In this document: positions 7,661 to 28,595 of the stretch, piece after piece
Position numbering within the stretch: position 1 is the stretch's first letter
Layout: the number at the start of each line of letters is the position of its first letter
Notes under the pieces: generated by a model
The model's input: only the letters and a program-made list of their open reading frames with translations
What the model was told of the DNA's origin: nothing
The model's database searches: none
Translations under genes and position numbers: made by a program
Virus record (IMG/VR): IMGVR_UViG_2923302340_000001
Direction: 5' to 3' (one strand)
Source of the DNA: a virus
Taxonomy: Duplodnaviria > Heunggongvirae > Uroviricota > Caudoviricetes
DNA: 48,684 nt

Positions 7661-8080
7661 ATGTCATATTTTTATTCTGCATCGACAAACGGATTTTATT
7701 CGACTGAATTTCACGGCACCAATATTCCTGATGATGCAGTGGAAATCTCGGAATCAGAGTGGAAAACACTGATTAATTCACAGAGTGTCACAAAAATGAT
7801 TACCTGTGGTGAGGACGGTCACCCTGTCATTGTTGACCGTCCTTCTCCAACACCAGAACAATTAGCCTTAATAAATGATGAAAAGAAATCTGCACTGATA
7901 GCAGAAGCAACGAATGTAATAGCGCCGCTTCAGGATGCGGTTGATTTAGGTATGGCAACAAATGATGAAACGAAACTGTTACTGGCATGGAAAAAATATC
8001 GCGTGCTATTGATGCGTATTAATACTTCAACAGCACTCGATATTGAATGGCCTACGCCTCCGGCAGTTCAGGCCAGATGA
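7661..8080 (+). CDS. tail fibre assembly chaperone
   Basis: ATG 5 nt after fibre stop; C-terminus ...[28 protein letters not shown] typical of fibre assembly proteins (track start 7565 overlaps fibre gene). Confidence 0.7.
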
Positions 8081-8654
8081 CATCCGGCGCTGTGCTGGTA
8101 TCTGTTGCCGTCACCGCGTCAATGTAATCCAGCACAGCGTTAAGGCGGGTTGTTTCTGCCTGCGTCAGCTTTCGCCCAGCCTGTAATTTCAGTTGAATCA
8201 GACTAATGGAAGCCATTGCAGCATCAATCAGTGACTGGCGCTGTGCTTCTGCCGCTTCTACTGCGGCACCGTGTTGTGCCTCAACATCCGTCACCCATTT
8301 CTCACCATCCCATTTATCGTATGGCGTTAACGGGGCGATAGTGGTTGTATTTTCAGGATAGTCGCCCGGTGCAGTTATTTCTTTGGCGTCACCCGTTTCG
8401 GTGTTATAGACGATTTCACCACGATGGTCTGGCACATATTCCCATGAATTTAAATCCACAGAACGGCAGATTGCATAACCAGCCTTATGTATGCCGGGGG
8501 CATCTAAACAAGAATATGCCGGAATACCAACACCTACCGCAAGATATTCAGTTGATGCGGAAATATATTCCTTTGTCTCACTGTCATAGTTGTAAACGAT
8601 GATGTTTCCTTCCTGTACGGCAATAAGTTCATTATTCAATATCGCGCTATTCAT
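8052..8654 (-). CDS. tail fibre assembly chaperone, alternative cassette
   Basis: 200 aa; C-terminus ...[24 protein letters not shown]; convergent with 7661..8080. Confidence 0.7.
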
Positions 8655-9104
8655 TATGCAGCTCTCACAATATAGTTAAATGCAATATTTCTCGGACGGG
8701 TTTCACGCCCACCAGGAATTTGAAAAGCATTAGCGGTTGTAGATCCGCCTTCCTGATTAATTCCTGTTGTATAAATACCACTCACACCATTTTGCAATGC
8801 AAATACTGTTGCGGTTCCAGGCCCACCACCGGGCCCAAAATACTTAAGTTCGAACTTTTTAATATCATCACTCTGAATATTCAATAAAGCACGTCCTGTA
8901 TCAATGCCGCGTCCATCATCCCAGCCACGAATAAACTCACCGCGTAAATCAGGAAGTTTTCCTGACGGGTATGCTTTGGCAAGAGTTGGATATTTCACCT
9001 TATCAAAGGCAGCACCGTTGCATTTCAGCCAGCCCGTTGGAGGGGTTGCGGAGGGCCACGGAACAGGTACACCAACAGGCAGCGCCGAACCTTCCCCAAA
9101 CCAA
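8654..9104 (-). CDS. promoterless alternative tail-fibre C-terminal cassette B
   Basis: Shares a 232-bp direct repeat (8881..9112 vs 9367..9599) including the crossover-like site with cassette A; no ATG; motif KYPTLAKAYPSGKLPDLRGEFIRGWDDGRGID; ends ...RPRNIAFNYIVRAA. Confidence 0.45.
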
Positions 9105-9116
9105 CGTTTTTATGCA
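9091..9116 (-). other. candidate crossover site (cassette B)
   Basis: Plus strand CTTCCCCAAACC AA CGTTTTTATGCA; minus strand carries the TTGGTTT core in inverted orientation relative to 7283..7308; overlaps stop of cassette A. Confidence 0.4.
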
Positions 9117-9640
9117 GCCCTCACGATAAAGTTAAATGCAATATTTCGTGGACGGGTTTCACTCCCGCCAGTATTACCGATACTCCCTCGTGAATGAAGT
9201 GTCGGTGATGGAATCAGAGTTCCTCCGGCATCGGCAGCATCAAGCCCCCGGCCTTGCGTATATGCTCTTCTGAAGATTGTCGCCAGTTCCCATTCCTCTT
9301 TTGAATCATACCCATCGTTGGCAACAACAATATGGCGGTGTTTTTCCAGCATCCCAGTCTGAATGCTCAATAAAGCACGTCCTGCATCAATACCACGCCC
9401 GTCATCCCAGCCACGAATAAACTCACCGCGTAAATCAGGAAGTTTTCCTGACGGGTATGCTTTGGCAAGAGTTGGATATTTCACCTTATCAAAGGCAGCA
9501 CCGTTGCATTTCAGCCAGCCCGTTGGAGGGGTTGCGGAGGGCCACGGAACAGGTACACCAACAGGCAGCGCCGAACCTTCCCCCAAACCAACGTTTTTAA
9601 CTTCGTGAACTGAGCTATCTAATAGCATTTTCACTAACAT
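9110..9640 (-). CDS. alternative tail-fibre C-terminal cassette A
   Basis: 176-aa ORF; codons downstream of the crossover-like site are in the frame needed for fusion to the fibre constant part (...DYL | GLGEGSALPVGVPVPW...). Confidence 0.5.
   Translation of the reverse strand: MLVKMLLDSSVHEVKNVGLGEGSALPVGVPVPWPSATPPTGWLKCNGAAFDKVKYPTLAKAYPSGKLPDLRGEFIRGWDDGRGIDAGRALLSIQTGMLEKHRHIVVANDGYDSKEEWELATIFRRAYTQGRGLDAADAGGTLIPSPTLHSRGSIGNTGGSETRPRNIAFNFIVRAA
9578..9603 (-). other. candidate crossover site (cassette A)
   Basis: Plus strand TTCCCCCAAACC AA CGTTTTTAACTT; minus strand AAGTTAAAAACG TT GGTTTGGGGGAA; 45 bp from invertase start. Confidence 0.45.
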
Positions 9641-9647
9641 AAACGGG

Positions 9648-10217
9648 ATGCTTTTTATGCAAATTGGCTATATTCGCGTATCAACAAATGACCAGAATAC
9701 AGATTTACAACGTAATGCTCTGAACTGTGCAGGATGTGAGCTGATTTTTGAGGATAAAATCAGTGGAACGAAGTCAGCCAGACCGGGATTGAAAAAACTG
9801 CTCAGAACGTTATCAGAAGGAGACACGCTGGTTGTCTGGAAGCTGGACAGGTTGGGTAGAAGCATGAAACACCTGATCACTCTTATTGAGGAACTACGGG
9901 AAAAAGGTGTTAATTTCCGTAGTCTGACGGACAGCATTGATACATCAACCCCTATGGGGCGTTTCTTTTTTCACGTCATGGGGGCTTTAGCAGAAATGGA
10001 GCGTGAATTAATTGTTGAGAGAACATTGGCTGGACTGGCAGCAGCTCGCGCACAGGGCCGCATTGGTGGGCGCCGCCCGAAGCTGACAAAAGAACAGCAT
10101 GAGCAAATAGCAAGGCTGATTAAAAACGGTCACGAGAGGAAACAACTGGCGATCATTTACGACATTGGTATATCAACGATTTATCGCTATCACCCTGTAG
10201 GAAGTGATTCAGCTTAA
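9648..10217 (+). CDS. DNA invertase, Hin/Gin/Cin/Pin-type serine recombinase
   Basis: N-terminus (M)QIGYIRVSTNDQNTDLQRNAL, ...TLVVWKLDRLGRSMKHL..., ...GRFFFHVMGALAEMERELIVERT..., C-terminal HTH; alternative ATG at 9657. Confidence 0.9.
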   Translation: MLFMQIGYIRVSTNDQNTDLQRNALNCAGCELIFEDKISGTKSARPGLKKLLRTLSEGDTLVVWKLDRLGRSMKHLITLIEELREKGVNFRSLTDSIDTSTPMGRFFFHVMGALAEMERELIVERTLAGLAAARAQGRIGGRRPKLTKEQHEQIARLIKNGHERKQLAIIYDIGISTIYRYHPVGSDSA

Positions 10218-10420
10218 ACAGGAAGATAGTTTTTCCTGCGATGATGCCCTATCTACGCTTTACCGCAGGTTTCCGGCTGGGAATCATTGACTGGAGTTAG
10301 GCCAGTAGTATGATGCTCGCAACACGAGATCCGATTTAGATCCTTTTACTGGTGGATTATCGTTCGATTAGCGAGAGACTTCGTGCATGACCGAAAGTGT
10401 TGTGGTAGAGTTCTCTTAAA

Positions 10421-10435
10421 ACCACGTAACGTGGT
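10421..10435. promoter_or_regulatory. ACCAC-N5-GTGGT palindrome (same motif as cI-cro operators) upstream of replicon
   Basis: ACCACGTAACGTGGT, perfect 5-bp arms with 5-bp spacer. Confidence 0.35.
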
Positions 10436-10475
10436 TACGATTGTGGGTGTCTGGTTGGAAACTGACCAGATATGG

Positions 10476-10600
10476 AAACAAAAAGCCCGCAGATAAATCT
10501 GCGGGCTTCTTGCGACATCCACGGAAAACCAACAAAACAATCCATGGGCGCCTCGACAACTCCCATTATACGTTGGTTTTCCGTGGACGCAAGAGCGAAC
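10476..10600 (-). ncRNA. candidate antisense RNA (CopA-like) opposite the repA leader
   Basis: Minus-strand intrinsic terminator (GCCCGCAG-ATAAAT-CTGCGGGC then T-run, 10476..10506) and 15-bp perfect stem 10519..10533 / 10572..10586 directly upstream of repA start. Confidence 0.3.
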
Positions 10601-10602
10601 AT

Positions 10603-11451
10603 ATGGATAGACCAATGCCGTCTCTACGTTCAGCTTACGTTTGTAATTTGTCGCCGGAGTTCCAGCCTCCAAAGCACCATACGCACAAGCTGCCGCTGGT
10701 GTTATCTGATGCTTTACAGCGCATTTATGGGCGTGATCTTACGTGTGAGGTTGCGTTCTACGTTAATCAACCGTCAGAGCGGAAGCGCCGGATAAACGAG
10801 CATCGTCGTCGGGCGATTAATGCTGTGATTGCTGCGATTTTGCACCATGTAAACATCATTTCTAAGCGGGTTCTGGCCAGTGCTGAGGCGTTGGCTGATT
10901 TTTGCGGCCTGTCTACCGTATCCGAAGCTGGGAACAAATCTATAACGCGCTGTACAAGGGCGTTGTCGCAACTGAAAGCGTTAGGTTTTATTGATTATGA
11001 ACGTCGCTGGGATCGGGTGAATAAACAGTATTGGCCAGCGAAAATAGAGATTCGTGATCAACTGCTGGAAACAGTTGGTATTACTGAACAAGCATGGAGA
11101 CGTGCGGTTAGCCAGAAACTTAATTACTTCAATGCGAAGAATAGCGAACGGCTTAAAAAAGCGATAACGGAGGCTGATTATAAGCGTATTGTTATTCAGG
11201 AGCAGATGGAGAATGTATGGCGTCAGAGGAAGACGGCCAGAGAGATAAAGGCAAAACAGAAAGCAGCGGAGAGAGCTGCGCGTCTTGTTCGGGAAAAGGG
11301 AGAGGCCGAACTTCGTCATCAAATCACTAGAGAGGTTAGCCAGGAATTTGCTGATGGCATGTATCCAGGTGCTGACCTTGCATATTTACGCTCCCTCGTT
11401 GATCAGCGTTATAACAGGCTAAGAAAGACCTGGACATCACTCCAACATTAA
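10603..11451 (+). CDS. repA: replication initiator RepA, IncFII RepA1-like
   Basis: ...RRRAINAVIAAILHH...CGLSTVSEAGNKSITRCTRALSQLKALGFIDYER... resembles RepA1 of IncFII plasmids (recollection); track start 10441 is an in-frame upstream extension; ATG at 10603 or 10615. Confidence 0.7.
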   Translation: MDRPMPSLRSAYVCNLSPEFQPPKHHTHKLPLVLSDALQRIYGRDLTCEVAFYVNQPSERKRRINEHRRRAINAVIAAILHHVNIISKRVLASAEALADFCGLSTVSEAGNKSITRCTRALSQLKALGFIDYERRWDRVNKQYWPAKIEIRDQLLETVGITEQAWRRAVSQKLNYFNAKNSERLKKAITEADYKRIVIQEQMENVWRQRKTAREIKAKQKAAERAARLVREKGEAELRHQITREVSQEFADGMYPGADLAYLRSLVDQRYNRLRKTWTSLQH

Positions 11452-11486
11452 CCCACCTGAATGATGAATCCGGTTTTACCGGAGGA

Positions 11487-11700
11487 TTATCCACGTCGCA
11501 ATAAAATAGCTGTTCAAAAAACAAGCTAAATTAATTTTCTCTAAACCTGAACACAGCGAAAATATCGTCTTTACAGGCATCAACTAATCAAGTTATCCAC
11601 AGTTTTGATATGTATATGCAAATGGTTTTTTATAATAGATGCACTAAACAAATAAATGCAAAATCACTTTCTTTTATTAAAACTTTCTTTATTTAACTTA
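11487..11700. other. putative plasmid origin (oriR-like)
   Basis: DnaA-box-like TTATCCACG (11487..11495) and perfect TTATCCACA (11593..11601) followed by ~100 bp AT-rich DNA, directly downstream of repA. Confidence 0.4.
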
Positions 11701-11703
11701 CGC

Positions 11704-11895
11704 AGGCTTTGCCTGTGAATATGTTCGCCCTTGCAGCGAGCTAAAGCTCGCGCCGGTTCGAGTCGCTACGCTCAAATATACCTCCTCCGGCAGCTGCCGG
11801 AGGCATGGAGTAGCCTGATCATCCTTTTCGAAACGGCGCGTTTCGAACTATACAAAATCAATTTATATAAGGCCGAAATAAGGCCTACGGCCGGG
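11704..11895. repeat. cluster of GC-rich palindromes/hairpins
   Basis: GCGAGC-TAAA-GCTCGC (11736..11751), perfect 20-bp palindrome CCTCCGGCAGCTGCCGGAGG (11784..11803), TTCGAAAC-GGCGC-GTTTCGAA (11827..11847), GGCC..GGCC (11871..11885). Confidence 0.6.
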
Positions 11896-12082
11896 CTTTG
11901 CAGGAGGAAGGGGCGAGCATTATCAATAAACGTCGATAAATACGCACACAGTAGCCATCAGAACGCGATAAAACGTAAGAAACATCATTTCCTATTAGAC
12001 ATAGAAAACTTGTCTTATACGCAATGTAGTAAATTTCTATTGCCACATAGGAAAAGATTTCCTATCATCGTAGATATAATAA

Positions 12083-12382
12083 ATGGAGATGGTTATGGAT
12101 AAAGATACTGTTTTAAAAATGTTGAATCCGGCTTGTTTAAAAAAAGCGGATGAATGGGAATCTCCTACATGTGGAGAAGTTCGGGCAGTCATTGGCCTGA
12201 CCGGAATGAGCGGCTCGCAGTTGGCCAAAAAACTTGGCTTAAAAGATAGTCGCAATGTTCGCAACTGGCAGATGTTAAAGGAGTCCACATCCAGATCCAG
12301 CATTCCGTATGCAGCCTGGGCGCTGCTGTGTTACTTCGCTGGATTAGGGTTAATCTTCATTGATAACAAAACAGATGTTTGA
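12083..12382 (+). CDS. hypothetical protein with HTH-like segment and hydrophobic C-terminus
   Basis: 99 aa; ...GLTGMSGSQLAKKLGL... HTH-like; C-terminal ...AAWALLCYFAGLGLIF. Confidence 0.3.
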   Translation: MEMVMDKDTVLKMLNPACLKKADEWESPTCGEVRAVIGLTGMSGSQLAKKLGLKDSRNVRNWQMLKESTSRSSIPYAAWALLCYFAGLGLIFIDNKTDV

Positions 12383-12669
12383 AACATGCAAATATGAGGT
12401 TTGTTATGGAACTTGTACGCAAAACACGCAAAGAGTTCTTGGACCTGTATCGCATGGGAGCTTTCACTTGTGTTGTGGCTACCCAGGACGAAGTGACAAA
12501 AAGCTGGCGGCTTTTTGCTCTCAATAAAAAAGGGATTGCCGTTTTCATTGAAAAAGCCCGTGGTGGTATCCGCGAATGGGCTGGATTGAATTATGTGGCT
12601 GATTTTTGCGCAGCTATGGGGATTCGGCGCTGGGAAGTCCATATGCCAGGAGTAAAGTCACAAAAATAG
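12379..12669 (+). CDS. hypothetical protein
   Basis: TTG start in track; ATG alternatives at 12394 and 12406 (GAGG 7 nt upstream of 12406). Confidence 0.3.
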   Translation: MKHANMRFVMELVRKTRKEFLDLYRMGAFTCVVATQDEVTKSWRLFALNKKGIAVFIEKARGGIREWAGLNYVADFCAAMGIRRWEVHMPGVKSQK

Positions 12670-12859
12670 GGCTTTCGCGTCGAAAATGAGGCGAAACTGA
12701 AAACGAGATTTTATTAACAAATAAGCAACATAAAAAACGGTGGAAAACGCCCAGGAAAACATGATCTTTTGAGCGGATTTTTTAGATCCGACAATGAACG
12801 GTGATCCGATGGTGCCGATAACGTCCATTATGTTAAATAGCCCCGTTTTTCTTGAAATT

Positions 12860-12903: not shown

Positions 12904-12913
12904 AGGATTGAGC

Positions 12914-13261
12914 ATGTGGACGGTACTTTTTAGCCAGCGATTTGACGACTGGCTAAATGAGCAAGAAGACGCTCTTCAGGAAAAGGTTTTGGCTGATTTG
13001 AAAAAGCTACAGGTTTACGGACCTGAGTTACCCAGGCCATATGCCGATACCGTAAAAGGTTCTCGGTACAAAAATATGAAAGAGCTTCGCGTTCAGTTTT
13101 CTGGCCGTCCGATAAGAGCCTTTTATGCGTTCGATCCGATTCGCCGGGCCATCGTTCTTTGTGCAGGAGACAAAAGTAACGATAAGCGGTTTTATGAAAA
13201 ACTGGTGCGTATAGCTGAGGATGAGTTTGCAGCACATCTGAACACACTGGAGAGCAAGTAA
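12914..13261 (+). CDS. type II toxin, RelE/HigB-like (addiction-module killer)
   Basis: ...GSRYKNMKELRVQFSGRPIRAFYAFDPIRRAIVLCAGDK...; toxin-first order; stop overlaps antitoxin ATG (TAATG). Confidence 0.55.
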   Translation: MWTVLFSQRFDDWLNEQEDALQEKVLADLKKLQVYGPELPRPYADTVKGSRYKNMKELRVQFSGRPIRAFYAFDPIRRAIVLCAGDKSNDKRFYEKLVRIAEDEFAAHLNTLESK

Positions 13262-13560
13262 TGAGAACATTAGATGAGGTGATTGCCAGCCGTTCACCTG
13301 AAAGCCAGGCGCGAATTAAAGAAATGGCAGATGAGATGATTCTTGAGGTCGGCTTGCAGATGATGCGTGAAGAACTCCAGTTATCACAAAAACAGGTTGC
13401 TGAGGCGATGGGTATAAGCCAGCCAGCAGTAACAAAGCTGGAGCAGCGCGGAAATGATTTAAAGCTGGCGACATTAAAGCGTTACGTTGAAGCTATGGGA
13501 GGCAAATTAAGCCTGGATGTTGAGCTTCCTACAGGAAAGCGAGTAGCGTTCCATGTCTAA
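13261..13560 (+). CDS. HigA-like HTH antitoxin (XRE family)
   Basis: 99 aa; HTH ...SQKQVAEAMGISQPAVTKLE... Confidence 0.55.
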   Translation: MRTLDEVIASRSPESQARIKEMADEMILEVGLQMMREELQLSQKQVAEAMGISQPAVTKLEQRGNDLKLATLKRYVEAMGGKLSLDVELPTGKRVAFHV

Positions 13561-18607: not shown

Positions 18608-18856
18608 TTACTTCTGGTTGTATTGAGCCTTGAGTAACTCAAAAGATTTTGTCAGCACTTCTTTCAATGACATATCCATTGAGCTGGCGAACGTTTTGTA
18701 CTCGCGTTTAAATTCAGGGTCGACGTTAAACGCCATCTGTGCCCCACCTGATTTGGTTCTGGTCGGCGTTTCAGTCGGGTCGAAAACCTGCGGTTGTTCG
18801 ATTGATGGCGGTACGCCTTTGCTGTTCTTTTTCGGTGGTTTTGATGGTGCGGCCAT
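18608..18856 (-). CDS. ParG-like ribbon-helix-helix partition/centromere-binding protein
   Basis: 82 aa; basic Pro-rich N-terminus; C-terminal ...FNVDPEFKREYKTFASSMDMSLKEVLTKSFELL... RHH-like; directly downstream of ParA. Confidence 0.45.
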   Translation of the reverse strand: MAAPSKPPKKNSKGVPPSIEQPQVFDPTETPTRTKSGGAQMAFNVDPEFKREYKTFASSMDMSLKEVLTKSFELLKAQYNQK

Positions 18857-18899
18857 GTGTATCCCCTTTTATATAAATCTATAAAACTATAATTATATA

Positions 18900-19568
18900 T
18901 TACGCGGCAGTAGTCAGAGCCTCAAGCTGATTGATAATCCCCTGGATAACATCGTCTGCCTTTTTGCGTGGCGCAACGTATGAACACTCAATGAGGCTTA
19001 AGCCCTTATCCTGAGCTTTGCTCAGAGCTGGCTTGTGGGGAATGTACTTATCGACAACAAAGTATGGCGTATTAGCCAGGTACTCTTGGGCTTCGATGTA
19101 GTCAGCTTCGTTTTCAGCCGCGCCGGAAAACACCATGCAAATTTTCTTGATTGGTACACCCTTTTTAACGATGCCGTGAGCAGTGTTAACGGTGGTTTCC
19201 AGGTCATCGGTAGAGAATCGGGTTGGCAAAATAACCATATCCAGAAATTCAGATAGCTTCGGTACTGATTCAGATGCGTAGGCACCGCCATCAACGATAA
19301 CCAGGTCGTATACTTCTGATTCGATGATTTTCTGGACTTGTGATGGCGTGCCGCACGGCTGCGCCGCGATTGCAGGTTCGATATTGTTGGCCATTCTGCG
19401 TTGTACCCAACGCGTTACCGTTCCGTTAAGCACATCCATATCGATCAGGCATACATTCCAGCCAGCCTTTGCATAAGCAACTGCTAAAGCACGAGCAATG
19501 GTTGATTTGGTTACGCCGCCTTTTCCGTTGAAAATACCTACAGATATAGTCATTTGTCGAGACTCCAT
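18900..19568 (-). CDS. parA: ParA/ParF-type partition ATPase
   Basis: Deviant Walker A GIFNGKGGVTKST; 222 aa (alternative start 19553). Confidence 0.8.
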   Translation of the reverse strand: MESRQMTISVGIFNGKGGVTKSTIARALAVAYAKAGWNVCLIDMDVLNGTVTRWVQRRMANNIEPAIAAQPCGTPSQVQKIIESEVYDLVIVDGGAYASESVPKLSEFLDMVILPTRFSTDDLETTVNTAHGIVKKGVPIKKICMVFSGAAENEADYIEAQEYLANTPYFVVDKYIPHKPALSKAQDKGLSLIECSYVAPRKKADDVIQGIINQLEALTTAA

Positions 19569-19574
19569 GTGTTT

Positions 19575-19674
19575 GATTATATAATTCTATAAATCTATAT
19601 TTATAGAATGAGGTAAGCATAACCAACTTTTGAGCGGATGAAAAGCACTTTATATAATTATATAAATCTATAAT
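19575..19674. promoter_or_regulatory. partition-operon promoter with two AT-rich palindromic boxes (candidate centromere/operator)
   Basis: GATTATATAATTCTATAAATCTATATTTATAGAAT (19575..19609) and AAAAGCACTTTATATAATTATATAAATCTATAAT (19641..19674) upstream of parA. Confidence 0.4.
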
Positions 19675-20169: not shown

Positions 20170-20832
20170 TCATAACCAGTTGACAACACTAACTACGCGG
20201 CCAAGAACTTTATAACGCTTAAATTCCTCGTTATTCAGATGCTTAGTGTTCATTTCAGCATCCCTTTCGGTTGACAGCATAACAGCATTGTCACCCGGTA
20301 TGACTCTACAGTGCCTCAAAACAACCAGGCCATTTCTGTCTTCAAGGGCATAGATCCCCTCATGAATCTCTGTATCGTCTGTATTAATCAGGACTTGGGA
20401 GCCAGGGGATATTGTTGGTGACATTAGCTTTAGCTCATCGTTGCTCTGGAGAACAGACAGAGACGATGGGTTGATGTTCTTGCTTCGTAGAATCTCCTGT
20501 TCTATCGCCAGCACTGGCTTTTCTCCGGCGTGCGATGCTATGTCATTTTTTATAGCTACAAGCCCAGGAATAACAGGAGCGTTAGTATTCTGGGGTGGGA
20601 ACGGGTTATCTGTTAAGCACGCGATATAAGGCGCTGATGCTTTCAGGGCGTGCGCGATTTTCTTGATGGCAGGTATAGATGGTTGTCTTAATCCGGCCTC
20701 ATAGTTCTGCAAGGTGCTTAAGCCTATTCCAGTGACTTGCTGGAGATCTCCGGCAGTCATGCCGGATTGTTTCCGTAGAGTCTGAATGCGCAGACCTATT
20801 TCTTTCTTGATGTTCTCGTCGTTGCTTTTCAT
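20170..20832 (-). CDS. CI-like repressor (N-terminal HTH, C-terminal S24/LexA-like peptidase domain)
   Basis: 220 aa; HTH ...MTAGDLQQVTGIGLSTLQNYE...; C-terminal autocleavage-type domain; divergent from cro-like gene. Confidence 0.75.
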   Translation of the reverse strand: MKSNDENIKKEIGLRIQTLRKQSGMTAGDLQQVTGIGLSTLQNYEAGLRQPSIPAIKKIAHALKASAPYIACLTDNPFPPQNTNAPVIPGLVAIKNDIASHAGEKPVLAIEQEILRSKNINPSSLSVLQSNDELKLMSPTISPGSQVLINTDDTEIHEGIYALEDRNGLVVLRHCRVIPGDNAVMLSTERDAEMNTKHLNNEEFKRYKVLGRVVSVVNWL

Positions 20833-21004: not shown

Positions 21005-21499
21005 ATGACCTTTCAGGAGTGGGTTGATGAAAATGGAGGCCAAATTGGTGTTGCCAGAAAGTTTGGCTTTACGTCATCACTGATTGGTGCCTGGTATCGC
21101 TTCGAGAGATTCCCTCGTGCGGATAACCTGACGCTGCTGGTGGCGTATTCGGAAGGCCGGATTAATGTCCAGCAATGGGCGGCAGATTTTGCCGAACGTC
21201 AGCGCCAGCGTAGCGATGGCACATCGGTTCGGCAGAACAAGATCAAAGGGAATCTCCCTGTTAACTGCTTATCAAGGCTGAAAGCGGTTTTCTCTGAGCT
21301 GGGGATACCTGCGGAGCGTTGCAATCTACGCGGTCCGCGATTCATTGCTCGCTGGAAACACTCACACGTAACCGTTTCAGAGGTTCGTGATGCGATTGCC
21401 GTGCTGGAGTTTAAGAATAAAGATTCCAGCGATATCGAGCTGATTCATAAGGAGATTAGCAACGCCCGGCGTTCAGCACTTGGGAGGCTTGAGGAATGA
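21005..21499 (+). CDS. Cro/YdaS-like HTH regulator with C-terminal extension
   Basis: N-terminus ...GGQIGVARKFGFTSSLIGAWYRF...; first rightward gene of the switch. Confidence 0.4.
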   Translation: MTFQEWVDENGGQIGVARKFGFTSSLIGAWYRFERFPRADNLTLLVAYSEGRINVQQWAADFAERQRQRSDGTSVRQNKIKGNLPVNCLSRLKAVFSELGIPAERCNLRGPRFIARWKHSHVTVSEVRDAIAVLEFKNKDSSDIELIHKEISNARRSALGRLEE

Positions 21500-22011
21500 T
21501 GATTCTGGCCTTCTTTGGTGATAATCACCAGATTCAATCGCAGGTGGTGCACTACCTTGATCAAACGATTAAAGGATTTGTTATCGATCATATTGATAAC
21601 GATAGTAAACGTCTATCTGTAGAGCAGAAAATTGGACGTGTGCAGCGACTGGTTGCCAGCCGTAACAGACGTGACACCGTAACAGTCGTCACGGGGATAA
21701 CGGAGGTCATGGAGTACCAGATGTTGCTGCATCGTGGAGCTGTTTTCTGCGTTCTTCCTGGCATTCTGCCAGCAATTCTTGCTCGTGGTTTTGTCCCTAT
21801 TGATGAGTCGTTTTTATATGTAACTCCAAGCCGTTCCCTTCTGGATTCGGAGGCGAAGCGTCGCATTTATATGCTGCCGGACGAGGCATTTTCTGAATGT
21901 TACCGCCGTGAAATGAGGTTGGGTAAACGAGATGTGTCTGTTTCTCGTGATGGCAGGTTTTTAAGCAGCCGCACGGTGAAAAGCACCAGGAATGACGGGG
22001 GCCATCAATGA
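21496..22011 (+). CDS. hypothetical protein
   Basis: 171 aa; start overlaps upstream stop (ATGA). Confidence 0.3.
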   Translation: MMILAFFGDNHQIQSQVVHYLDQTIKGFVIDHIDNDSKRLSVEQKIGRVQRLVASRNRRDTVTVVTGITEVMEYQMLLHRGAVFCVLPGILPAILARGFVPIDESFLYVTPSRSLLDSEAKRRIYMLPDEAFSECYRREMRLGKRDVSVSRDGRFLSSRTVKSTRNDGGHQ

Positions 22012-22241
22012 GTGGTTATGTTCGCGGTGCTGCGATGCATTGCCAGAATCCCCAATTCTGGCGCTTTCTGACCAGTAAAACAGGGAAGAACATTTCAAAC
22101 AGTTCTGAGGCCTCTGTGATTCTGCGTGAGTTTTGCGGGATCTCATCCCGTAAAGAGCTGGCAAAGAACTACGCGGCCAGAAGCATGTATGTCCAGTTAA
22201 TTAACGAGTTCAACCTCTTTATCAATGGTAAGGGGCGCTGA
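22008..22241 (+). CDS. hypothetical protein
   Basis: 77 aa; overlapping stop/start with neighbours. Confidence 0.2.
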   Translation: MSGYVRGAAMHCQNPQFWRFLTSKTGKNISNSSEASVILREFCGISSRKELAKNYAARSMYVQLINEFNLFINGKGR

Positions 22242-22645
22242 TGAACGGACGTACACCAACGAAGAAAGAGAAACTTTATATACAAGCGGTGCTCACTCAC
22301 GTGGGTTGCATAGCTTGCATTATTGATGGCCGTGAAATTGATAATCCAGAGCTGTGGACGGAGCTGCATCACGATCCTGATTACGGCAGCGTTGATGAGA
22401 ATTGCCACTTCCATAGCTTTGGGTTGTGCGCACCACATCATCGCGGTGTTGTGCCTGGTGGTGGGCGTGTGCCTCCGTATATTGCCGTTCGTCACCCTCC
22501 CCTGAGTAATTGTGCTCGCTTTGTTGAGCGTTATGGCACCGATGAATTTTTGTGTGCGCAGACGTGGGAGCTGTTGCCGCAGTCAGTTAAAGACGAAATT
22601 GGGTTTGATCTTAGTCTTGGTGAAGTACCAGGGGATACCAAATGA
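22241..22645 (+). CDS. Cys/His-rich protein, possibly Ref-like/HNH-like nuclease
   Basis: ...HVGCIACIIDGR...ELHHDPDYGS...CHFHSFGLCAPHH... Confidence 0.3.
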   Translation: MNGRTPTKKEKLYIQAVLTHVGCIACIIDGREIDNPELWTELHHDPDYGSVDENCHFHSFGLCAPHHRGVVPGGGRVPPYIAVRHPPLSNCARFVERYGTDEFLCAQTWELLPQSVKDEIGFDLSLGEVPGDTK

Positions 22646-22974
22646 GATATACCGGCTTTCGCAAACCAGCGACCAGAAAAAGCAAATACGGCAATAAAAA
22701 AACGGTTGTCGATGATATCGCTTTTGATAGCAAAAAAGAGGCTGATTACTACTGCGAACTGAAGCTACTGAGAAAAGCTGGCCGCGTTGTGACGTTTCTT
22801 ATGCAGGTGCCTTTTCATCTGCCAGGTGGTGTCGTTTATAAACTTGATTTCATGGTGTTTTATGACGATGGGACGATTGATTGTGTCGACACTAAAGGTG
22901 TGCGAACAGACGTCTACATCATGAAGAAAAAGCAGGTAGAGGCGCTTTATCCCGTCACGATACGGGAGATCTGA
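22642..22974 (+). CDS. DUF1064-like phage protein
   Basis: ...KYGNKKTVVDDIAFDSKKEADYYCEL... (recollection). Confidence 0.35.
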   Translation: MRYTGFRKPATRKSKYGNKKTVVDDIAFDSKKEADYYCELKLLRKAGRVVTFLMQVPFHLPGGVVYKLDFMVFYDDGTIDCVDTKGVRTDVYIMKKKQVEALYPVTIREI

Positions 22975-22977
22975 ACA

Positions 22978-23355
22978 GTGAGACGCGATCTGGATAGCTT
23001 GTTTGAGCTATGGGCGCTGTGGGTGCGCAATGGCTGCAACGCCCGTAGCGGTTTCGCGTCGATGTTAGAAATGATGATGGTTACGCGTTGCCAGTTTACC
23101 GGAGGGGGCGGCGCACCAAATGACTCACTGGAAACCAGTATCGAGGGAGCGGTGACGGCCCTCACGGTAGTTGATGAGACTGCGGCGCTGGTTGTCCGAA
23201 TTGAATACGGGGCGTGGGAGATTCGGGGCCTCGACATAAATGCACCGCATATTGATAAAGCCCACGCCCTTTCTCTTAGTCTCAGACAGTATCGCCGGAA
23301 GCTGGCAAAAGCCAGGGCGTATGTTGTCGACTACTTGAAAAAGAGAAGAGAATGA
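22978..23355 (+). CDS. putative late-gene antiterminator (Q-like), tentative
   Basis: ...LFELWALWVRNG... weakly reminiscent of Q-type antiterminators; last gene of nin-like block. Confidence 0.3.
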   Translation: MRRDLDSLFELWALWVRNGCNARSGFASMLEMMMVTRCQFTGGGGAPNDSLETSIEGAVTALTVVDETAALVVRIEYGAWEIRGLDINAPHIDKAHALSLSLRQYRRKLAKARAYVVDYLKKRRE

Positions 23356-23414
23356 AAGTGTCATTTTGAGCTGTTTTGGTGATTTGTAGACACCGGGAAT
23401 ATCGGAAAATCTAT

Positions 23415-23525
23415 AAATATATAATTATATATTTATATAAAAAGTGCTTTACAGGTGGGAAAAAATTTCCTAAGGTTATACCCAAAACCGAGCGATACCC
23501 GCCCTGGTTAAACCGGAGAAATCTG
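23415..23525 (+). promoter_or_regulatory. repeated promoter/leader cassette, copy 2
   Basis: TATATAATTATATA (23418..23431), TTTATATAAA, TTTACAGGTGGG..., conserved leader, ATG at 23526. Confidence 0.45.
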
Positions 23526-24593
23526 ATGAATAAACAAGTAATTATTTCTGACTGGATCAACAACCCTAACAGCCTGTTGAGCACTGATACTGGCTATAGA
23601 TTACGTCATGTTAATGGCCGTATGGTCAAAAGCGATGAGCACGAAACCTTTTTCGTTGTTGAAGACGATGGACGTCTTTATGAGGATGGTCACTCTTATG
23701 AATCCCAAACAGGTTGTATCCCTGCAGAGTTGGTAGACGTAACAGAAAAGCTGCGCAAAGCATGGCTTGAACAGCAGCAGCGCGGAGATGATTACGTAAA
23801 TACCTATCAGGAGCGCCAGAACGCGCGTCTTGCCCGATATATTGCTCGTGCAGAAAAAGCCAGAAAAGAAGGTGCGGTGGCGCATAAGCGAGCGCATGAA
23901 CTGTTGGATGTGATCCCGTTAGGCCAGCCGATTTTAGTTGACCATTATAGCGCGAAAGGCCATCGCCGCCGTTTGTCTAAAGCTGATGCGTTATTCAGAA
24001 AATCGTTTGTTGAGTGTGAAAGCAGAGCATCGTACTACGAAAGCAAAGCCGCAGGTGTCGGCCGTAATGGAGTTTCGTCTGATGATCCTGATGCGCTATT
24101 TAAGTTGCTTCGTAAGCTGCAAGGCTGCATGAAGTCACACATCAAAATGAAGGCCGCAAATAAGGCTATTCGCAAATACAAAAAAGACCAATTACAGCAG
24201 CTTTCCGCATTAATTGACCTTGAGTTTACTGAAAGCGAAGCCAAAGGGTTACTCGCCGGAGATTTCTGTGGGCACATTGGCTTCCCTTCATACTCACTGA
24301 GTAACAATAATGCCGAAATCAAACGACTACAGAGCCGTATTAAGGAGCTTGAATCGGTCAAGTCTGTAACAGGAGCACAGCGCGAAGAATACGACGGCTT
24401 TTCTATGGAGATAGATCCAGAGGATAACCGTATCCTGTTTTATTTCCCTGGCAAACCAGAGGCAAACATTCGTTCGCTGCTTAAATCACGCGCCTTTAAG
24501 TGGAGTCCAACCCGTAATGCATGGGTTCGCAAGATTACTCCAAACGCCCTGGCTGATGCCCGATATCTGAAAGAATCGCTATTGAAAGCCTGA
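23526..24593 (+). CDS. DUF3560-like protein (tentative)
   Basis: ATG 23526 directly after conserved leader (track start 23376 would translate the promoter cassette); 355 aa. Confidence 0.4.
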   Translation: MNKQVIISDWINNPNSLLSTDTGYRLRHVNGRMVKSDEHETFFVVEDDGRLYEDGHSYESQTGCIPAELVDVTEKLRKAWLEQQQRGDDYVNTYQERQNARLARYIARAEKARKEGAVAHKRAHELLDVIPLGQPILVDHYSAKGHRRRLSKADALFRKSFVECESRASYYESKAAGVGRNGVSSDDPDALFKLLRKLQGCMKSHIKMKAANKAIRKYKKDQLQQLSALIDLEFTESEAKGLLAGDFCGHIGFPSYSLSNNNAEIKRLQSRIKELESVKSVTGAQREEYDGFSMEIDPEDNRILFYFPGKPEANIRSLLKSRAFKWSPTRNAWVRKITPNALADARYLKESLLKA

Positions 24594-24624
24594 CAGTAAG
24601 TCTACGGCGGGATGTCTCCCGCTG

Positions 24625-24650
24625 TATATAGAATTATATATTTATATAAA
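24625..24650. promoter_or_regulatory. AT-rich palindromic box upstream of 24671 gene
   Basis: TATATAGAATTATATA + TTTATATAAA. Confidence 0.35.
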
Positions 24651-24670
24651 TGTATAAGGACGCCTCGACA

Positions 24671-24952
24671 ATGAAACGCAAAATTATTAACCCCCAAGAT
24701 GTGATTAATTTCCTGACCGATCACCCATGTTCAAAAGTGGACGTAATCGCGGAACACATTGGTGTGTCGCAGAACTCTATGCGTTGCAGACTGAGAAGCA
24801 TGGTTGCCGAAGGACAGATAACAACCAGGAAAATAAATGGTTGCCTGTACTACTCCGCTAAACCGGAATTGCCATTTGGCATGAATCCTAACTCCATGTT
24901 GTTTAACACCTTATTAGCCAAAGTTAAGCCGTTGAGAGGGGCTGTGGCATGA
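24671..24952 (+). CDS. small DNA-binding-like protein (winged helix?)
   Basis: AAGGA 11 nt upstream of ATG 24671; ...VDVIAEHIGVSQNSMRCRLRSMVAEGQI... Confidence 0.3.
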   Translation: MKRKIINPQDVINFLTDHPCSKVDVIAEHIGVSQNSMRCRLRSMVAEGQITTRKINGCLYYSAKPELPFGMNPNSMLFNTLLAKVKPLRGAVA

Positions 24953-25314
24953 GCATCAAAACCCATACCGGAATAATCATTACCAATGATGGTGAGAAAA
25001 GAGTGAAGTTGCGCGAAACGCCGACAACCTGGTGTGTTGGTCCGAAAGAAACATATCGCAAGGAAGATGGCCGTCGTTGTGGGGCACCACTTTCCCGCCG
25101 TCGCCTCCTTTTGAGCACGATAAAACCTATCGGGCAGGTTGAGCAACCAACGACTCCGGTAACGAAGATTTCAGACAAGAGTCTGGCAAACCTGATCGCC
25201 GATGCGGACAAGGTGCTGGAGCGGAACACCCCCGTTGCAGATGAGGAATGGTGGCAGGATTTCCGAGCCGCAATGCTAGAGCTTCAGGAACGTCGTCGGG
25301 AGGAGTTGAAGTGA
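24949..25314 (+). CDS. hypothetical protein
   Basis: 121 aa; ATGA overlap with upstream gene. Confidence 0.3.
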   Translation: MSIKTHTGIIITNDGEKRVKLRETPTTWCVGPKETYRKEDGRRCGAPLSRRRLLLSTIKPIGQVEQPTTPVTKISDKSLANLIADADKVLERNTPVADEEWWQDFRAAMLELQERRREELK

Positions 25315-25502
25315 GCAAGAAAAATGCCGGATGGGTCAGGCCAATGAAGGCGAATAAACATCATTATTTTAATGAAGGTGAAGTAACCAGCATTTGCGGC
25401 CGTTGGATGTATTTTGGTGATTACCGTGAGCCAGACACTTTTGAGAGTCCTGATGATTGCGTGTCTTGTCGCCGGAAATTGAACAAGGTGGCTTCTAAAT
25501 GA
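25311..25502 (+). CDS. small Cys-containing protein (possible zinc ribbon)
   Basis: GTG start overlapping upstream stop (GTGA); C-x-x-x-W ... C-x-x-C spacing. Confidence 0.3.
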   Translation: MSKKNAGWVRPMKANKHHYFNEGEVTSICGRWMYFGDYREPDTFESPDDCVSCRRKLNKVASK

Positions 25503-26182
25503 AAGAACGTGGTGTTGTTTTTAATGACGATATGGTTAGGGCCATCCTCGAAGGAAGGAAGACGCAGACTCGCCGACCTGTAAAAAATGTCAGGGCCGAT
25601 AACTGCCTGGTTATCCGTAAACCGACAAAGAAACGCAATGGTGTCTATACCCACGTTATGGATGCACCTGAATATGGTTTATGCCCGTTCGGTAACGTTG
25701 GTGATCGCATATGGGTCCGTGAAGCGTGGGCGATATTAGGCAATGAGGATGGTTGCAGTGTGGACTGGAACGACAACCTTTGTCGTGGCGATGAGAAGAA
25801 CGCAGCAAGGATTTATCGGGCCAGTTGTGAGCAAAAACCGGGGGATTATGGCTTATGGTCGATACCCGATGATGCCGACTGGAAGCCTCACACTGTGAAT
25901 GAAAAGTTTGATGGTGGGTGGCGTCCATCAATTCACATGCCGCGCTGGGCTTCGCGTATTTTGCTGGAAATTACCGACGTGCGTGTGGAACGGCTGCATG
26001 ACATGAGCGAGGCAGATGCTAAAGCGGAAGGCGCATCTCCGGCGACGTACAAGATTACACCGCCGGAAGCGGTTTATCGCGTTGGCTTTGGTGATATCTG
26101 GCGCGGTATTTACGGGCAAGAGAACTGGCTATCTAACCCGTGGGTATGGGTAATTGAGTTTAAGCGTATTCAGGAAGCATAA
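25499..26182 (+). CDS. phage protein with ASCH/PUA-like N-terminus (tentative)
   Basis: ...MVRAILEGRKTQTRRP... Confidence 0.3.
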   Translation: MKERGVVFNDDMVRAILEGRKTQTRRPVKNVRADNCLVIRKPTKKRNGVYTHVMDAPEYGLCPFGNVGDRIWVREAWAILGNEDGCSVDWNDNLCRGDEKNAARIYRASCEQKPGDYGLWSIPDDADWKPHTVNEKFDGGWRPSIHMPRWASRILLEITDVRVERLHDMSEADAKAEGASPATYKITPPEAVYRVGFGDIWRGIYGQENWLSNPWVWVIEFKRIQEA

Positions 26183-26184
26183 CT

Positions 26185-26526
26185 ATGAACAAATCACTTA
26201 ATGCACGTTGTATTCGCCGTTGGGAAATCAAATTTAAGCCTATTTGTGATTCGAAAGTTAGTCCTCACATGCGTAAGAGTTTTTTGCGTGGGATGCGTGA
26301 ATTGGGGCTTATTACGGCTGAAAACATGGTTGAAAGCATGGCTGAGAAAAATGCCAAGTTTGACTACGACGGCAAGGACACAGGCTGGTCGCCGGAGTTT
26401 TCTAACTGGTATGAAGCGCATAGAGAAAAGTATCGTAAAGAGGCTCGTGACCATCTGGATGAAGAAGCCACAAACGATGAGATCGATAAAGAAATTGAAA
26501 CAGAGCTGGAGTCTTGGAATGACTAA
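26185..26526 (+). CDS. hypothetical protein
   Basis: 113 aa; acidic C-terminus. Confidence 0.3.
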   Translation: MNKSLNARCIRRWEIKFKPICDSKVSPHMRKSFLRGMRELGLITAENMVESMAEKNAKFDYDGKDTGWSPEFSNWYEAHREKYRKEARDHLDEEATNDEIDKEIETELESWND

Positions 26527-27211
26527 CATCACAGCAATTAATTATCAGGCGCTACGTGAGGCAGCAGAAGAAGAAATTATGCTGCGAACTGCAAGCGACA
26601 CGTCAGATAACTGGCAGGATTTAGCAACTCCAGAGGCTATGCTGGCACTACTGGATGAACGGGAAAGAAATCAGCAATACATCAAACGCCGCGACCAGGA
26701 GAACGAGGATATTGCGCTAACGGTAGGGAAGCTGAGAGTTGAGCTTGAGGAAGTAAAACAACACGCTGAAGAATTATCCGAAACCAAGGCTGTTCGTAAC
26801 CAATGGCGGCCAGATATTTGCCCAATAACCGGACGTGCATTTTTCATGTGGATTGAGCATCCAACATTGGGAAATGTGCCGACATATGGTGGCACATTAG
26901 ATAGTTACACCATTCCAACAAAGGACGGTGACGGTGAGTTTTCATGTGAGCGTTACGATCATGATTTTGGCGGTTGGGTAGAAAGCGAATGTCTTGGGTT
27001 ATATCTGATTGATGATAGAGAACAATGCAGGGTCTACGAACTGGAGGAACGCGTTAAGGAACTGGATGCTCGGGAAATATCGCTCCCGGAACGTAGCAGC
27101 ATGCTTCATCGAACAGATTTTCACGATGATTACCAAACGGTAATGGCATACAAAGTTTCTGAAGTCATCGCTGCAATCCGCGCCGCAGGCATTCGCATCA
27201 AAGGAGAGTGA
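26519..27211 (+). CDS. Ead/Ea22-like protein
   Basis: ATG 26519 overlapping upstream stop; ...DICPITGRAFFMWIEHPTLGNVPTYGGTLDSYTIP... (recollection of lambda ea22 family); track ORF 26201..27211 has an out-of-context upstream extension. Confidence 0.45.
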   Translation: MTNITAINYQALREAAEEEIMLRTASDTSDNWQDLATPEAMLALLDERERNQQYIKRRDQENEDIALTVGKLRVELEEVKQHAEELSETKAVRNQWRPDICPITGRAFFMWIEHPTLGNVPTYGGTLDSYTIPTKDGDGEFSCERYDHDFGGWVESECLGLYLIDDREQCRVYELEERVKELDAREISLPERSSMLHRTDFHDDYQTVMAYKVSEVIAAIRAAGIRIKGE

Positions 27212-27212
27212 T

Positions 27213-27587
27213 ATGACCACTATTACCAAAGAGCGACTACTGACAATCAAGCAGTGGCGCGAAACATACGGACCTGGTAGCAACGTTGTACTGCCAGCAG
27301 AAGAAGCGGAAGAACTGGCACGAATTGCTCTGGCATCGCTGGAAGCAGAACCGGTGGCATATCAGTATCGCCAGTGGGATGCAGAATATGATGAATGGGG
27401 AGAATGGGAAGATTGCGGGGAATGTGCTTTCGAATGGTTTGTTGAGGAAGAGAAATGTCAGGGGGCAGGTGTTCAGACCCGTAAGCTATATGCCGCGCCG
27501 CCAGTTTCGGTAACTCCGGGTGGTTGGATAAGCTGTAGTGAGAATCCATGCGCTTACGAGCAGTATTCAGATATTCAGAGCGGGTAA
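27213..27587 (+). CDS. hypothetical protein
   Basis: 124 aa; acidic, Trp-rich. Confidence 0.3.
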   Translation: MTTITKERLLTIKQWRETYGPGSNVVLPAEEAEELARIALASLEAEPVAYQYRQWDAEYDEWGEWEDCGECAFEWFVEEEKCQGAGVQTRKLYAAPPVSVTPGGWISCSENPCAYEQYSDIQSG

Positions 27588-27727: not shown

Positions 27728-27871
27728 GCATTGTTTTTTTATTGATCGACTAACCACATTATGAAGGTTTTTTTATGGGGAAACCTTGTTTTAGGTGGTA
27801 ACTGGGTGTAGTGTTTCATTTAACGTAGTAAAACTGCGTTAAGCGATTACCGCGTAATTTGTTGCTTTATG

Positions 27872-27903
27872 AAGCCCTGCCTTTTCGGTGGGGCTTTTTT
27901 TTT
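27872..27903 (+). terminator. intrinsic terminator upstream of lysis genes
   Basis: AAGCCC...GGGCTT hairpin followed by T9; overlaps track ORF start 27869. Confidence 0.45.
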
Positions 27904-27916
27904 AACGAGGATTTCA

Positions 27917-28312
27917 ATGTCAGCAGAACCAATTTCCGGTACGGCCGTTGCTGCTGGTGGCCTGATGGGTGCCAGCGTTTTTGGTATTGCAACTGGTATT
28001 GATTACGGCGTTGTATTCGGGGCATTTGCTGGCGCTGTTTTCTATGTTGCTACAGCGGTGAATATTAGCCGTCTCAAGCTGATTGGCTATTTCTTTACAT
28101 CGTTCATTGTTGGAGTGATTGGAGCGCCGTTAGTTGGCTCATTTCTTGCCAAATGGACCAGCTACAACGATCGTCCTCTTGATGCGCTTGGTGCGGTTAT
28201 TGTGGCTGCATTGACAATTAAAATCCTCACGTTCGTAAACAGCCAGGATCTCGGTAGCATCTTTGGAATGCTTTCCCGCTTACGTGGAGGGGGGTCAAAT
28301 GGTAAGCAGTGA
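27917..28312 (+). CDS. holin-like membrane protein
   Basis: GAGGA RBS; Gly/Ala-rich predicted TM helices; first gene of lysis block. Confidence 0.45.
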   Translation: MSAEPISGTAVAAGGLMGASVFGIATGIDYGVVFGAFAGAVFYVATAVNISRLKLIGYFFTSFIVGVIGAPLVGSFLAKWTSYNDRPLDALGAVIVAALTIKILTFVNSQDLGSIFGMLSRLRGGGSNGKQ

Positions 28313-28595
28313 CCCGTCAGCACTGATTAATGCGGTGCTTTGCACAGTAATAGTAATGGCACTGATGCTTTATCGACGGAAAGACTCCAGGCATCGTCCA
28401 TTTGTTTCCTTTCTGGCTTATATCTACGTCATTGTATACGCCAATGTTCCCTTCCGTTATGTGTTCGGTCTTTATCAAGAATCCCACTGGCTGGTGGTTA
28501 TTGGAAATCTGATTATCTGCATCGTTGTTCTGTATTTCAGGGGCAATCTGGCGCGGATAGTTGACGCATTAGGGTTTAATCATGACCAAAGATGA
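28299..28595 (+). CDS. second small membrane protein (holin/antiholin-like)
   Basis: ATG 28299 overlaps previous gene; 2-3 hydrophobic segments. Confidence 0.4.
   Translation: MVSSDPSALINAVLCTVIVMALMLYRRKDSRHRPFVSFLAYIYVIVYANVPFRYVFGLYQESHWLVVIGNLIICIVVLYFRGNLARIVDALGFNHDQR

Follow-up and report, generated by a model that had tools for sequence, protein, structure and literature searches.

What does a gene for a plasmid-type replication initiator do in the genome of a tailed phage? The case comes from IMG/VR virus record IMGVR_UViG_2923302340_000001 (Caudoviricetes), whose 48,684 bases, here called the window, are the whole, circularly permuted genome of a contractile-tailed temperate phage. 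An initial annotation, made from the letters alone, had described positions 10421 to 11895 as an IncFII RepA1-like replicon with a DnaA-box origin and had read it as the mark of a phage-plasmid lifestyle. Our analysis favors, with a probability of roughly 0.8, a model in which this locus is the maintenance replicon of a circular phage-plasmid: theta-type, initiator-dependent, of the IncFII/IncL-M RepA superfamily and with inferred antisense control. The label "IncFII RepA1" is too specific for it.

The initiator gene is placed as follows:

10603-11451, plus strand: repA, 282 amino acids; an alternative start at 10615 gives 278 amino acids, and the frame is open over 10441-11451

Membership of the RepA family is clear from two profiles. 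RepA matches Pfam PF02387 (IncFII_repA) over profile positions 2-272 of 275 (E 1e-43; 150.2 bits, cut-off 22.9) and scores 231.1 bits against NCBIfam NF040977 (RepA_IncFII_LM; cut-off 70), so that homology to plasmid Rep families is confirmed by hidden Markov model search. RefSeq names the protein "plasmid replication initiator RepA"; in phage records it is called hypothetical, and the matching PHROG family is one of unknown function. A PDB sequence search with RepA gave no meaningful match, and a scan of one genome per species returned no relatives. The open reading frame (ORF) is intact and conserved across lineages. Its start is ambiguous: a Shine-Dalgarno (SD)-like AAGAG at 10591-10595, in a conserved block AAG(A/G)GCGAAC, serves the ATG at 10603, and the relatives' proteins align from the second Met, at 10615. 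In relatives at 80-85% RepA identity, the ATG equivalent to 10603 is the start of an out-of-frame ORF of 13 or 46 codons, which overlaps with the beginning of repA. The RefSeq models of relatives are longer still, at 326 amino acids (L001 6173-7153). In the window their start codon (the ATG at 10472) is not in the repA frame, and 1-nucleotide (nt) indels lie between in the relatives, so we read the annotated N-terminal extension as an artefact that is probably wrong.

If the replicon maintains a plasmid, then the places where it occurs should be informative. It is present in 70 of 5,426 complete E. coli genomes (1.3%), and all 81 of its places in those 70 genomes are plasmids, with 0 chromosomal. 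In PLSDB, 61 non-mobilizable plasmids have the 1.7-kb replicon region at 96-99% identity, and in 59 of them at least 80% of the queried region is present. Closed circular plasmids are the form in which elements with this replicon were deposited. Their hosts are E. coli, E. albertii, E. fergusonii, Klebsiella aerogenes and Salmonella, and most of those listed measure 46-50 kb (outliers 32 and 94 kb); a 48,488-bp member of the family is found in E. coli strain Seattle 1946 (NZ_CP101926.1). An equally close replicon region is carried by three Yersinia phage genome records (vB_YpM_39, 41 and 44; host Y. pestis EV76), which align to 82-83% of the window's first half at 97% identity; over the second half, one Yersinia phage alignment covers 54% at 99% identity. 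These three, together with one weak Vibrio match, are the only RepA homologues among 50,697 phage records.

The same molecule is fully equipped as a phage. Its virion and lysis set is complete: terminase, portal, protease, capsid, sheath, tube, tape measure, baseplate, fibres, holin and endolysin. In Pfam scans covering the non-structural ORFs and several of the tail ORFs, no integrase was detected, and the only recombinase was a Hin/Gin-type invertase. Nor is an integrase present in the RefSeq annotation of a closed plasmid that is 97.5% identical. The lifestyle and the lack of an integrase proposed in the initial annotation are thus both borne out, the former by plasmid records and by phage records at 97-99% identity.

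Immediately downstream of repA lies the putative origin, which is built from these elements:

11470-11482: small CCGG..CCGG hairpin just past the repA stop, with covariation in relatives (CCGG/CCGG to CCAG/CTGG)
11487-11495, plus strand: one-mismatch DnaA-box look-alike, TTATCCACG, not conserved
11593-11601, plus strand: DnaA box TTATCCACA, perfect, unique and conserved, at the repA-proximal edge of the origin
11602-11700: origin core, with three ATGCA boxes at 11616, 11639 and 11656 (candidate RepA sites) and an AT-rich unwinding stretch
11702-11890: cluster of about five GC-rich hairpins (11702-11714, 11735-11750, 11784-11803, 11827-11847 and others), a candidate single-strand priming signal

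The perfect DnaA box, 142 nt past the repA stop, is the sole exact copy of its sequence on either strand of the 48.7 kb (about 0.4 expected by our own arithmetic). It is kept in relatives down to 58% RepA identity, unchanged in the diverged loci L004, L005, L006, L014, L016 and L017, as TTATTCACA in L013 and as TTATCCACT in L021. The window holds 13 one-mismatch matches against 13.5 expected, and relatives have unrelated sequence at 11487-11495; this second site, which the initial annotation had also counted as a DnaA box, looks like chance and is probably non-functional. The AT-rich stretch that had been placed after the boxes is confirmed, with a GC content of 21% in 11600-11699 against 45-55% in the flanks. 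Alignment of eight diverged loci defined the layout, in which the DnaA box is followed by GTTT and by the blocks TATGCAAATGGTT, GATGCA and ATGCAA-ATCAC, conserved in all relatives including L021, a relative on a conjugative plasmid. An AT-rich run comes next, then AACTTACGCAG, then the GC-rich hairpins. The hairpin stems vary by compensatory substitution (CAGGC/GCCTG, CAGAC/GTCTG, CAGC/GCTG), the first two hairpins are kept in all relatives, and the single-strand fold of the cluster is more stable than that of shuffled sequence (z = -4.2 on the plus strand, -3.3 on the minus strand). From this conservation we infer that the ATGCA boxes bind RepA and that the hairpin cluster is a priming signal.

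Could this origin also, or mainly, be the lytic origin, with one initiator serving both lifestyles and an antisense brake that is overridden on induction? We consider this possible but doubtful. No other initiator, helicase, loader or polymerase is recognisable among the early genes, where the ORFs of 21005-27587 yield only PHROGs of unknown function, a Ref nuclease, DUF1064, DUF3560 with a partial 'primase' PHROG match, and Ead/Ea22; several of these uncharacterised early proteins could nonetheless be an unrecognised lytic replicon. P1, the best-studied case, has separate plasmid and lytic replicons, and an IncFII-type RepA acts in cis at low copy, a poor fit to burst replication.

A maintenance replicon of the RepA superfamily would be expected to carry antisense control, which is the rule there. 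Between the invertase gene and repA we find a candidate cassette:

10518-10587, plus strand: repA leader hairpin, the presumed target, with a 16-bp outer stem, an inner stem (10544-10548/10562-10566) and an apical loop CGCCUCGACAACU at 10549-10561
10565-10592, minus strand: predicted countertranscript promoter, with -10 TATAAT at 10570..10565, -35 TTGCGT at 10592..10587 and a 16-nt spacer
10474-10560, minus strand: predicted countertranscript of ~85 nt; its short 5' tail is single-stranded and is followed by stem-loop I (10514-10552) and by stem-loop II (10478-10513), the terminator, with its U tract

The leader hairpin folds in every relative. In relatives of the 60% RepA identity group the sequence of the outer stem is wholly different, while the inner stem and apical loop, GCCUCGACAACUCC, are conserved and the loop is the same. 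In the group at 80-100%, pairing holds for 95% of cells, and compensatory change is seen in two pairs and five cells. On the minus strand, TATAAT is invariant in 10 of 10 sequences, though it lies inside the hairpin 'loop', and both groups have TTGC(G/A)T 16-18 nt upstream of it. The terminator, a 16-bp hairpin with a U tract read from 10513 to 10478 on the minus strand, lies 45-90 nt downstream of TATAAT, and six of its pairs are changed on both sides. The ~85-nt RNA has a fold energy of -41.2 kcal/mol (z = -6.5). Its architecture is alike in all 10 relatives, the 60% group included; in the close group of six sequences 162 of 162 cells pair, with two compensatory pairs. Several of its G-U pairs would be A-C mismatches if read on the other strand, so stem-loop I is fully paired on the minus strand only. 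The 5' end of this RNA is a prediction, and the evidence for a countertranscript whose tail would pair with the leader's apical loop is consistent but thin. In PLSDB the control region is found only in the 61 non-mobilizable plasmids described above.

These structures were scored by folding each sequence and counting pairs within groups. Such counts replaced an RNAalifold consensus on a 10-sequence MAFFT alignment, which failed to show the long hairpin, since the two lineages cannot be aligned in that region. An antisense RNA of ~115 nt spanning the whole long hairpin had also been considered, and was dropped after the invariant TATAAT was found in the loop.

Further conserved features lie upstream of the leader hairpin:

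10287-10314, plus strand: promoter-like TTGACT-16-TATGAT (10 of 12 consensus matches), candidate repA mRNA promoter with a predicted start at ~10321
10328-10342: two GATC (Dam) sites, 11 nt apart and immediately past the candidate promoter; GATCC-N6/7-GATC(C/T)TT in all aligned relatives
10403-10411, plus strand: TGnTAGAGT, extended -10-like, a possible second repA promoter
10420-10436: palindrome AACCACGTAACGTGGTT, a 5' mRNA hairpin or an operator; in the 60% group the inverted repeat is kept and its sequence changed (CTAC..GTAG)

By eye, the layout of the first promoter recurs as TTGACT-16-TATCAT in L005 and L013 and as TTGACG-16-TAGAAT in L004, and it would drive the repA mRNA. The TG-n-TAGAGT element is kept in seven of eight aligned relatives despite diverged flanks, L016 having TAAAGT. 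The minus-strand form of the palindrome was flagged as terminator-like. Sensitivity of the GATC pair to Dam and SeqA is speculation on our part.

Collectively, these features are consistent with a model in which RepA would be translated from an mRNA starting ~280 nt upstream, at the 10287-10314 promoter, whose leader would fold into the 10518-10587 hairpin and display the conserved loop. A constitutive countertranscript of ~85 nt, started from the TATAAT within that hairpin and ended at the 10478-10513 terminator, would base-pair with the hairpin's loop and 5' arm, lowering RepA synthesis and thereby setting copy number and incompatibility. RepA and host DnaA would then open the AT-rich stretch and the host replisome would be loaded, possibly with a priming site supplied by the hairpin cluster. 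Stable inheritance would come from a Xer site, a HigBA-like pair and a ParA cassette (all described below), with no need for an integrase.

Several observations weigh against this model. The -35 of the countertranscript promoter is weak, matching three of six positions, which is why a promoter scan missed it. Covariation comes from only about four to five independent lineages, and the shuffle controls are modest, at 10/500 for the countertranscript and 6/500 for the leader-hairpin pair counts. Nor is there a visible route by which pairing would block RepA synthesis. When the surroundings of the repA start were searched by eye for a sequence able to form a pseudoknot with the apical loop, only 6-nt matches turned up, and these are not conserved. 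No attenuator terminator was found, nor a clear leader peptide in the window itself. An Rfam scan of 10200-12100 (E <= 1) detected neither CopA (RF00042) nor the repBA pseudoknot (RF01089). This negative is informative because in the canonical IncFII locus L007 the search does pick up CopA (85.6 bits), and in L021 it picks up the repBA pseudoknot (49.3 bits, gathering score 45). The look-alikes that the scan returned (Thr leader, trpB motif, CsrC terminator) reflect a generic hairpin plus terminator, and all score far below gathering. More generally, the case for the replicon and its control is drawn from sequence, comparison and database records, and the candidate RepA-binding sites are guessed from conservation alone.

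Some of these points would fit a locus with no regulatory countertranscript, in which the hairpins act in mRNA or DNA only, as a stabiliser, an attenuator or a RepA operator, and TATAAT is merely a conserved loop. The plus-strand hairpin itself covaries, the -35 is weak, Rfam gives no match, and the 10420-10436 palindrome could serve as an operator. We nevertheless think this unlikely. The terminator U tract is present on the minus strand only, as is full pairing of stem-loop I; the perfect TATAAT stays unchanged between lineages that share none of their stem sequence; and antisense control is usual in the superfamily, with CopA and the repBA pseudoknot found in relatives. In the other direction, the antisense-controlled replicon could be read more boldly, as an uncatalogued type of antisense RNA that starts from a promoter in the loop of the very hairpin it targets and pairs with this loop through its free 5' tail, in a cassette confined to this phage-plasmid family in the plasmid collection searched, while RepA and origin are shared with a conjugative plasmid, and with RepA-ori as the sole initiator for both maintenance and lytic growth. 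We advance this combination tentatively and would not expect it to hold in full.

Is the locus instead a classical IncFII replicon of the R1/R100 type, with CopB, CopA, tap and RepA1? Such replicons (copB-copA-tap-repA1-oriR; locus L007) do resemble it. They share the PF02387 RepA and its central motif CGLST-S-AG--SITR-TRAL, and an origin just downstream of repA in which a single DnaA box precedes AT-rich DNA (in L007 the box is ~180 nt after repA1), and they have a small leader countertranscript, which in the window is only predicted. A tap-like feature is present in relatives, where the short ORF at the conserved SD-ATG overlaps the repA start; in the window this SD-ATG is in frame with repA. 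The differences are greater. RepA of the window is 26% identical to that of L007 overall, and 40% over 97 central residues, and it fails the strict model TIGR03474 (incFII_RepA) with 78.7 bits against a cut-off of 446.9. No copB ORF, which would encode CopB (RepA2), occurs in the window; repA and its upstream neighbour, the invertase gene here and transferase genes in relatives, have no conserved ORF between them, and nothing matches CopA. By alignment and blastn, the origin and hairpin cluster have no similarity to the canonical IncFII oriR region beyond the DnaA box, and the predicted RNA differs in starting inside the loop of its target hairpin with a free 5' tail. A classical IncFII replicon is thus contradicted on three defining features, PLSDB assigns no replicon type to the two family members examined, and we consider this reading highly improbable. 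Of the RepA1-like initiator in the initial annotation, membership of the RepA family stands, and "IncFII RepA1-like" is an overstatement given the 26% identity, the failed strict model and the missing CopB and Rfam matches. That the replicon is an inactive relic, in an integrating or defective prophage, has no observation in its favor and can be set aside almost without reservation, as none of the 81 places in complete E. coli genomes is chromosomal, the repA ORF is intact and conserved, and no integrase is present.

Parallels to the maintenance replicon are also found in the I-complex/IncL-M group, in which a repBA or repYZ leader peptide, RNAI and an activating pseudoknot control RepA (locus L021). 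Both RepA proteins match NF040977, and the origin of L021 has the layout of the window: DnaA box, three ATGCA boxes, AT-rich DNA and GC hairpins. L021 differs in lying on a contig with a type IV secretion system and in having a leader that matches the repBA pseudoknot, whereas the window has no such match, no conserved pseudoknot partner and no separate leader peptide. This comparison suggests an arrangement of a known kind, a RepA of the superfamily with a different control cassette.

More broadly, RepA homologues number at least 5,000 records in PLSDB. Among the best-scoring 5,000, 3,713 are on conjugative plasmids, in line with the view in the initial annotation that the replicon type is more typical of such plasmids; nearly all the homologues listed have less than 60% identity and cover less than half the length of RepA. 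The clade at 58% RepA identity or more is small. In the members inspected at 59-85% identity, on contigs of ~22-62 kb, repA directly follows myovirus tail-fibre genes or, where the contig starts there, an invertase gene, and is followed downstream by a toxin-antitoxin pair, Rha, ParA and a CI-like repressor. In L021, where RepA is 61-62% identical, the gene is beside a type IV secretion system, which places it on a conjugative plasmid, and the next inspected relative (36% identity) belongs to a plasmid that carries type IV secretion genes and is classed by MOB-suite as mobilizable. Since these two lie with secretion genes and the other members inspected with phage genes, we conclude that conjugative plasmids and the phage family share a replication module. 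RepA and origin appear to have been exchanged separately from the control cassette, because L021 shares them (origin 10852-11200) but has a leader (9869-9989) that matches the repBA pseudoknot.

In the 60% lineage (L004 9516-10004; also L006, L016 and L017), a 162-amino-acid ORF lies between leader hairpin and repA and overlaps the repA start as ATGA. It resembles the N-terminal winged-helix half of RepA (NF040977, 4e-11, below cut-off), and may be a truncated paralogue that acts as a leader or regulator.

Beyond the origin, the window encodes functions that would stabilise a plasmid:

12811-12838, plus strand: Xer/dif-like site, GGTGCCGATAA-CGTCCA-TTATGTTAAAT, between the origin and the toxin gene
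12908-13261 and 13261-13560, plus strand: HigB-like toxin (Pfam Gp49, 5.7e-23) and helix-turn-helix (HTH) antitoxin (HTH_3, 4e-10)
18608-19672, minus strand: partition cassette, with ParA at 18900-19568, an 82-amino-acid partner at 18608-18856, and arrays of 8-bp repeats at 18869-18899, 19569-19607 and 19650-19672

The Xer/dif-like site has two mismatches to the dif-type pattern, which had 0 matches in 100 shuffles, and both arms are unchanged across 13 related loci, the 60% group among them, with only the 6-nt spacer varying. This site would provide the multimer resolution the element otherwise lacks. The HigBA-like pair of the initial annotation is upheld by both Pfam matches; RefSeq names it a RelE/ParE family toxin and an HTH protein. 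The ParA/ParG-like cassette fares less evenly. ParA matches the CbiA/ParA/MipZ families and its gene is flanked by 8-bp TATA-type repeats, but the partner encoded downstream has no Pfam or NCBIfam match, so the ParG-like label rests on size and position only.

Between the origin and the Xer site, copies of TTTC(C)TAT, direct and inverted, occupy 11990-12075 around a promoter-like site (12040-12068). They precede a 95-amino-acid HTH-like ORF (12095-12382) and an 87-amino-acid ORF (12406-12669), both conserved in relatives, and may be an autoregulated operator.

The remaining landmarks of the phage genome are these:

9648-10217: Hin/Gin-type invertase gene, adjoining the tail-fibre region
20170-20832, minus strand: CI-like repressor
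27869-29124: holin and endolysin
37178-39034: large terminase

The large terminase shares 63-65% identity with its counterparts in Vibrio phages X29, phi 2, Rostov 7 and vB_VpaM_XM1, so the nearest deposited phage relatives of the head genes are Vibrio phages. Three proteins with ParB N-terminal domains, distinct from the ParA cassette, are encoded just upstream of the terminase genes (32741-34737 and 36031-36621), and in one of them a methyltransferase domain is fused on. What lies between repA and the tail-fibre assembly gene is cargo that varies (window 8052-10217; L001 4087-5780; L004 7893-8981; L006 7993-8952): the Hin-type invertase with alternative fibre and assembly segments in the window, and lipopolysaccharide glycosyl- or acyltransferases in relatives.

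As a tailed temperate phage that lives as a plasmid with its own initiator, partition and addiction modules and no integrase, the element resembles P1/P7, D6, SSU5/pHCM2/pSLy3 and N15. It differs from P1/P7, D6, SSU5 and N15 in its 48.7-kb genome, contractile tail and Vibrio-like large terminase. Two candidate relatives, pSLy3 and pTZ20_1P, proved to be SSU5-like and P1-like, respectively, and hence unrelated. Some members of the P1 and pMT1 groups are typed IncFII in a published table, and the present family is not among the eight groups tabulated there (PMC11652158). None of ten typed groups fits a ~48-kb enterobacterial myovirus (PMC12977533), and a further paper cites OR545054 only as a similarity match (PMC13552960). 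A literature search with the Yersinia phage names and accessions, and on phage-plasmids, found no paper describing the family or its control region.

Phage-plasmids with plasmid-type initiators are well established, some of them typed IncFII, and the locus does not change how such replicons are thought to work; the replicon is unsurprising in principle, and it is the control cassette that deserves experiment. Seattle 1946, which we take to be the susceptibility-testing control strain ATCC 25922, would, if so, be a handy experimental host for the family. The element is common yet untyped, having no PLSDB replicon type in the two members examined and falling outside the ten groups of the current typing tool. 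Defining its replicon supplies a typing marker, yields control elements that can be tested, and documents one replication module common to a phage and a conjugative plasmid.

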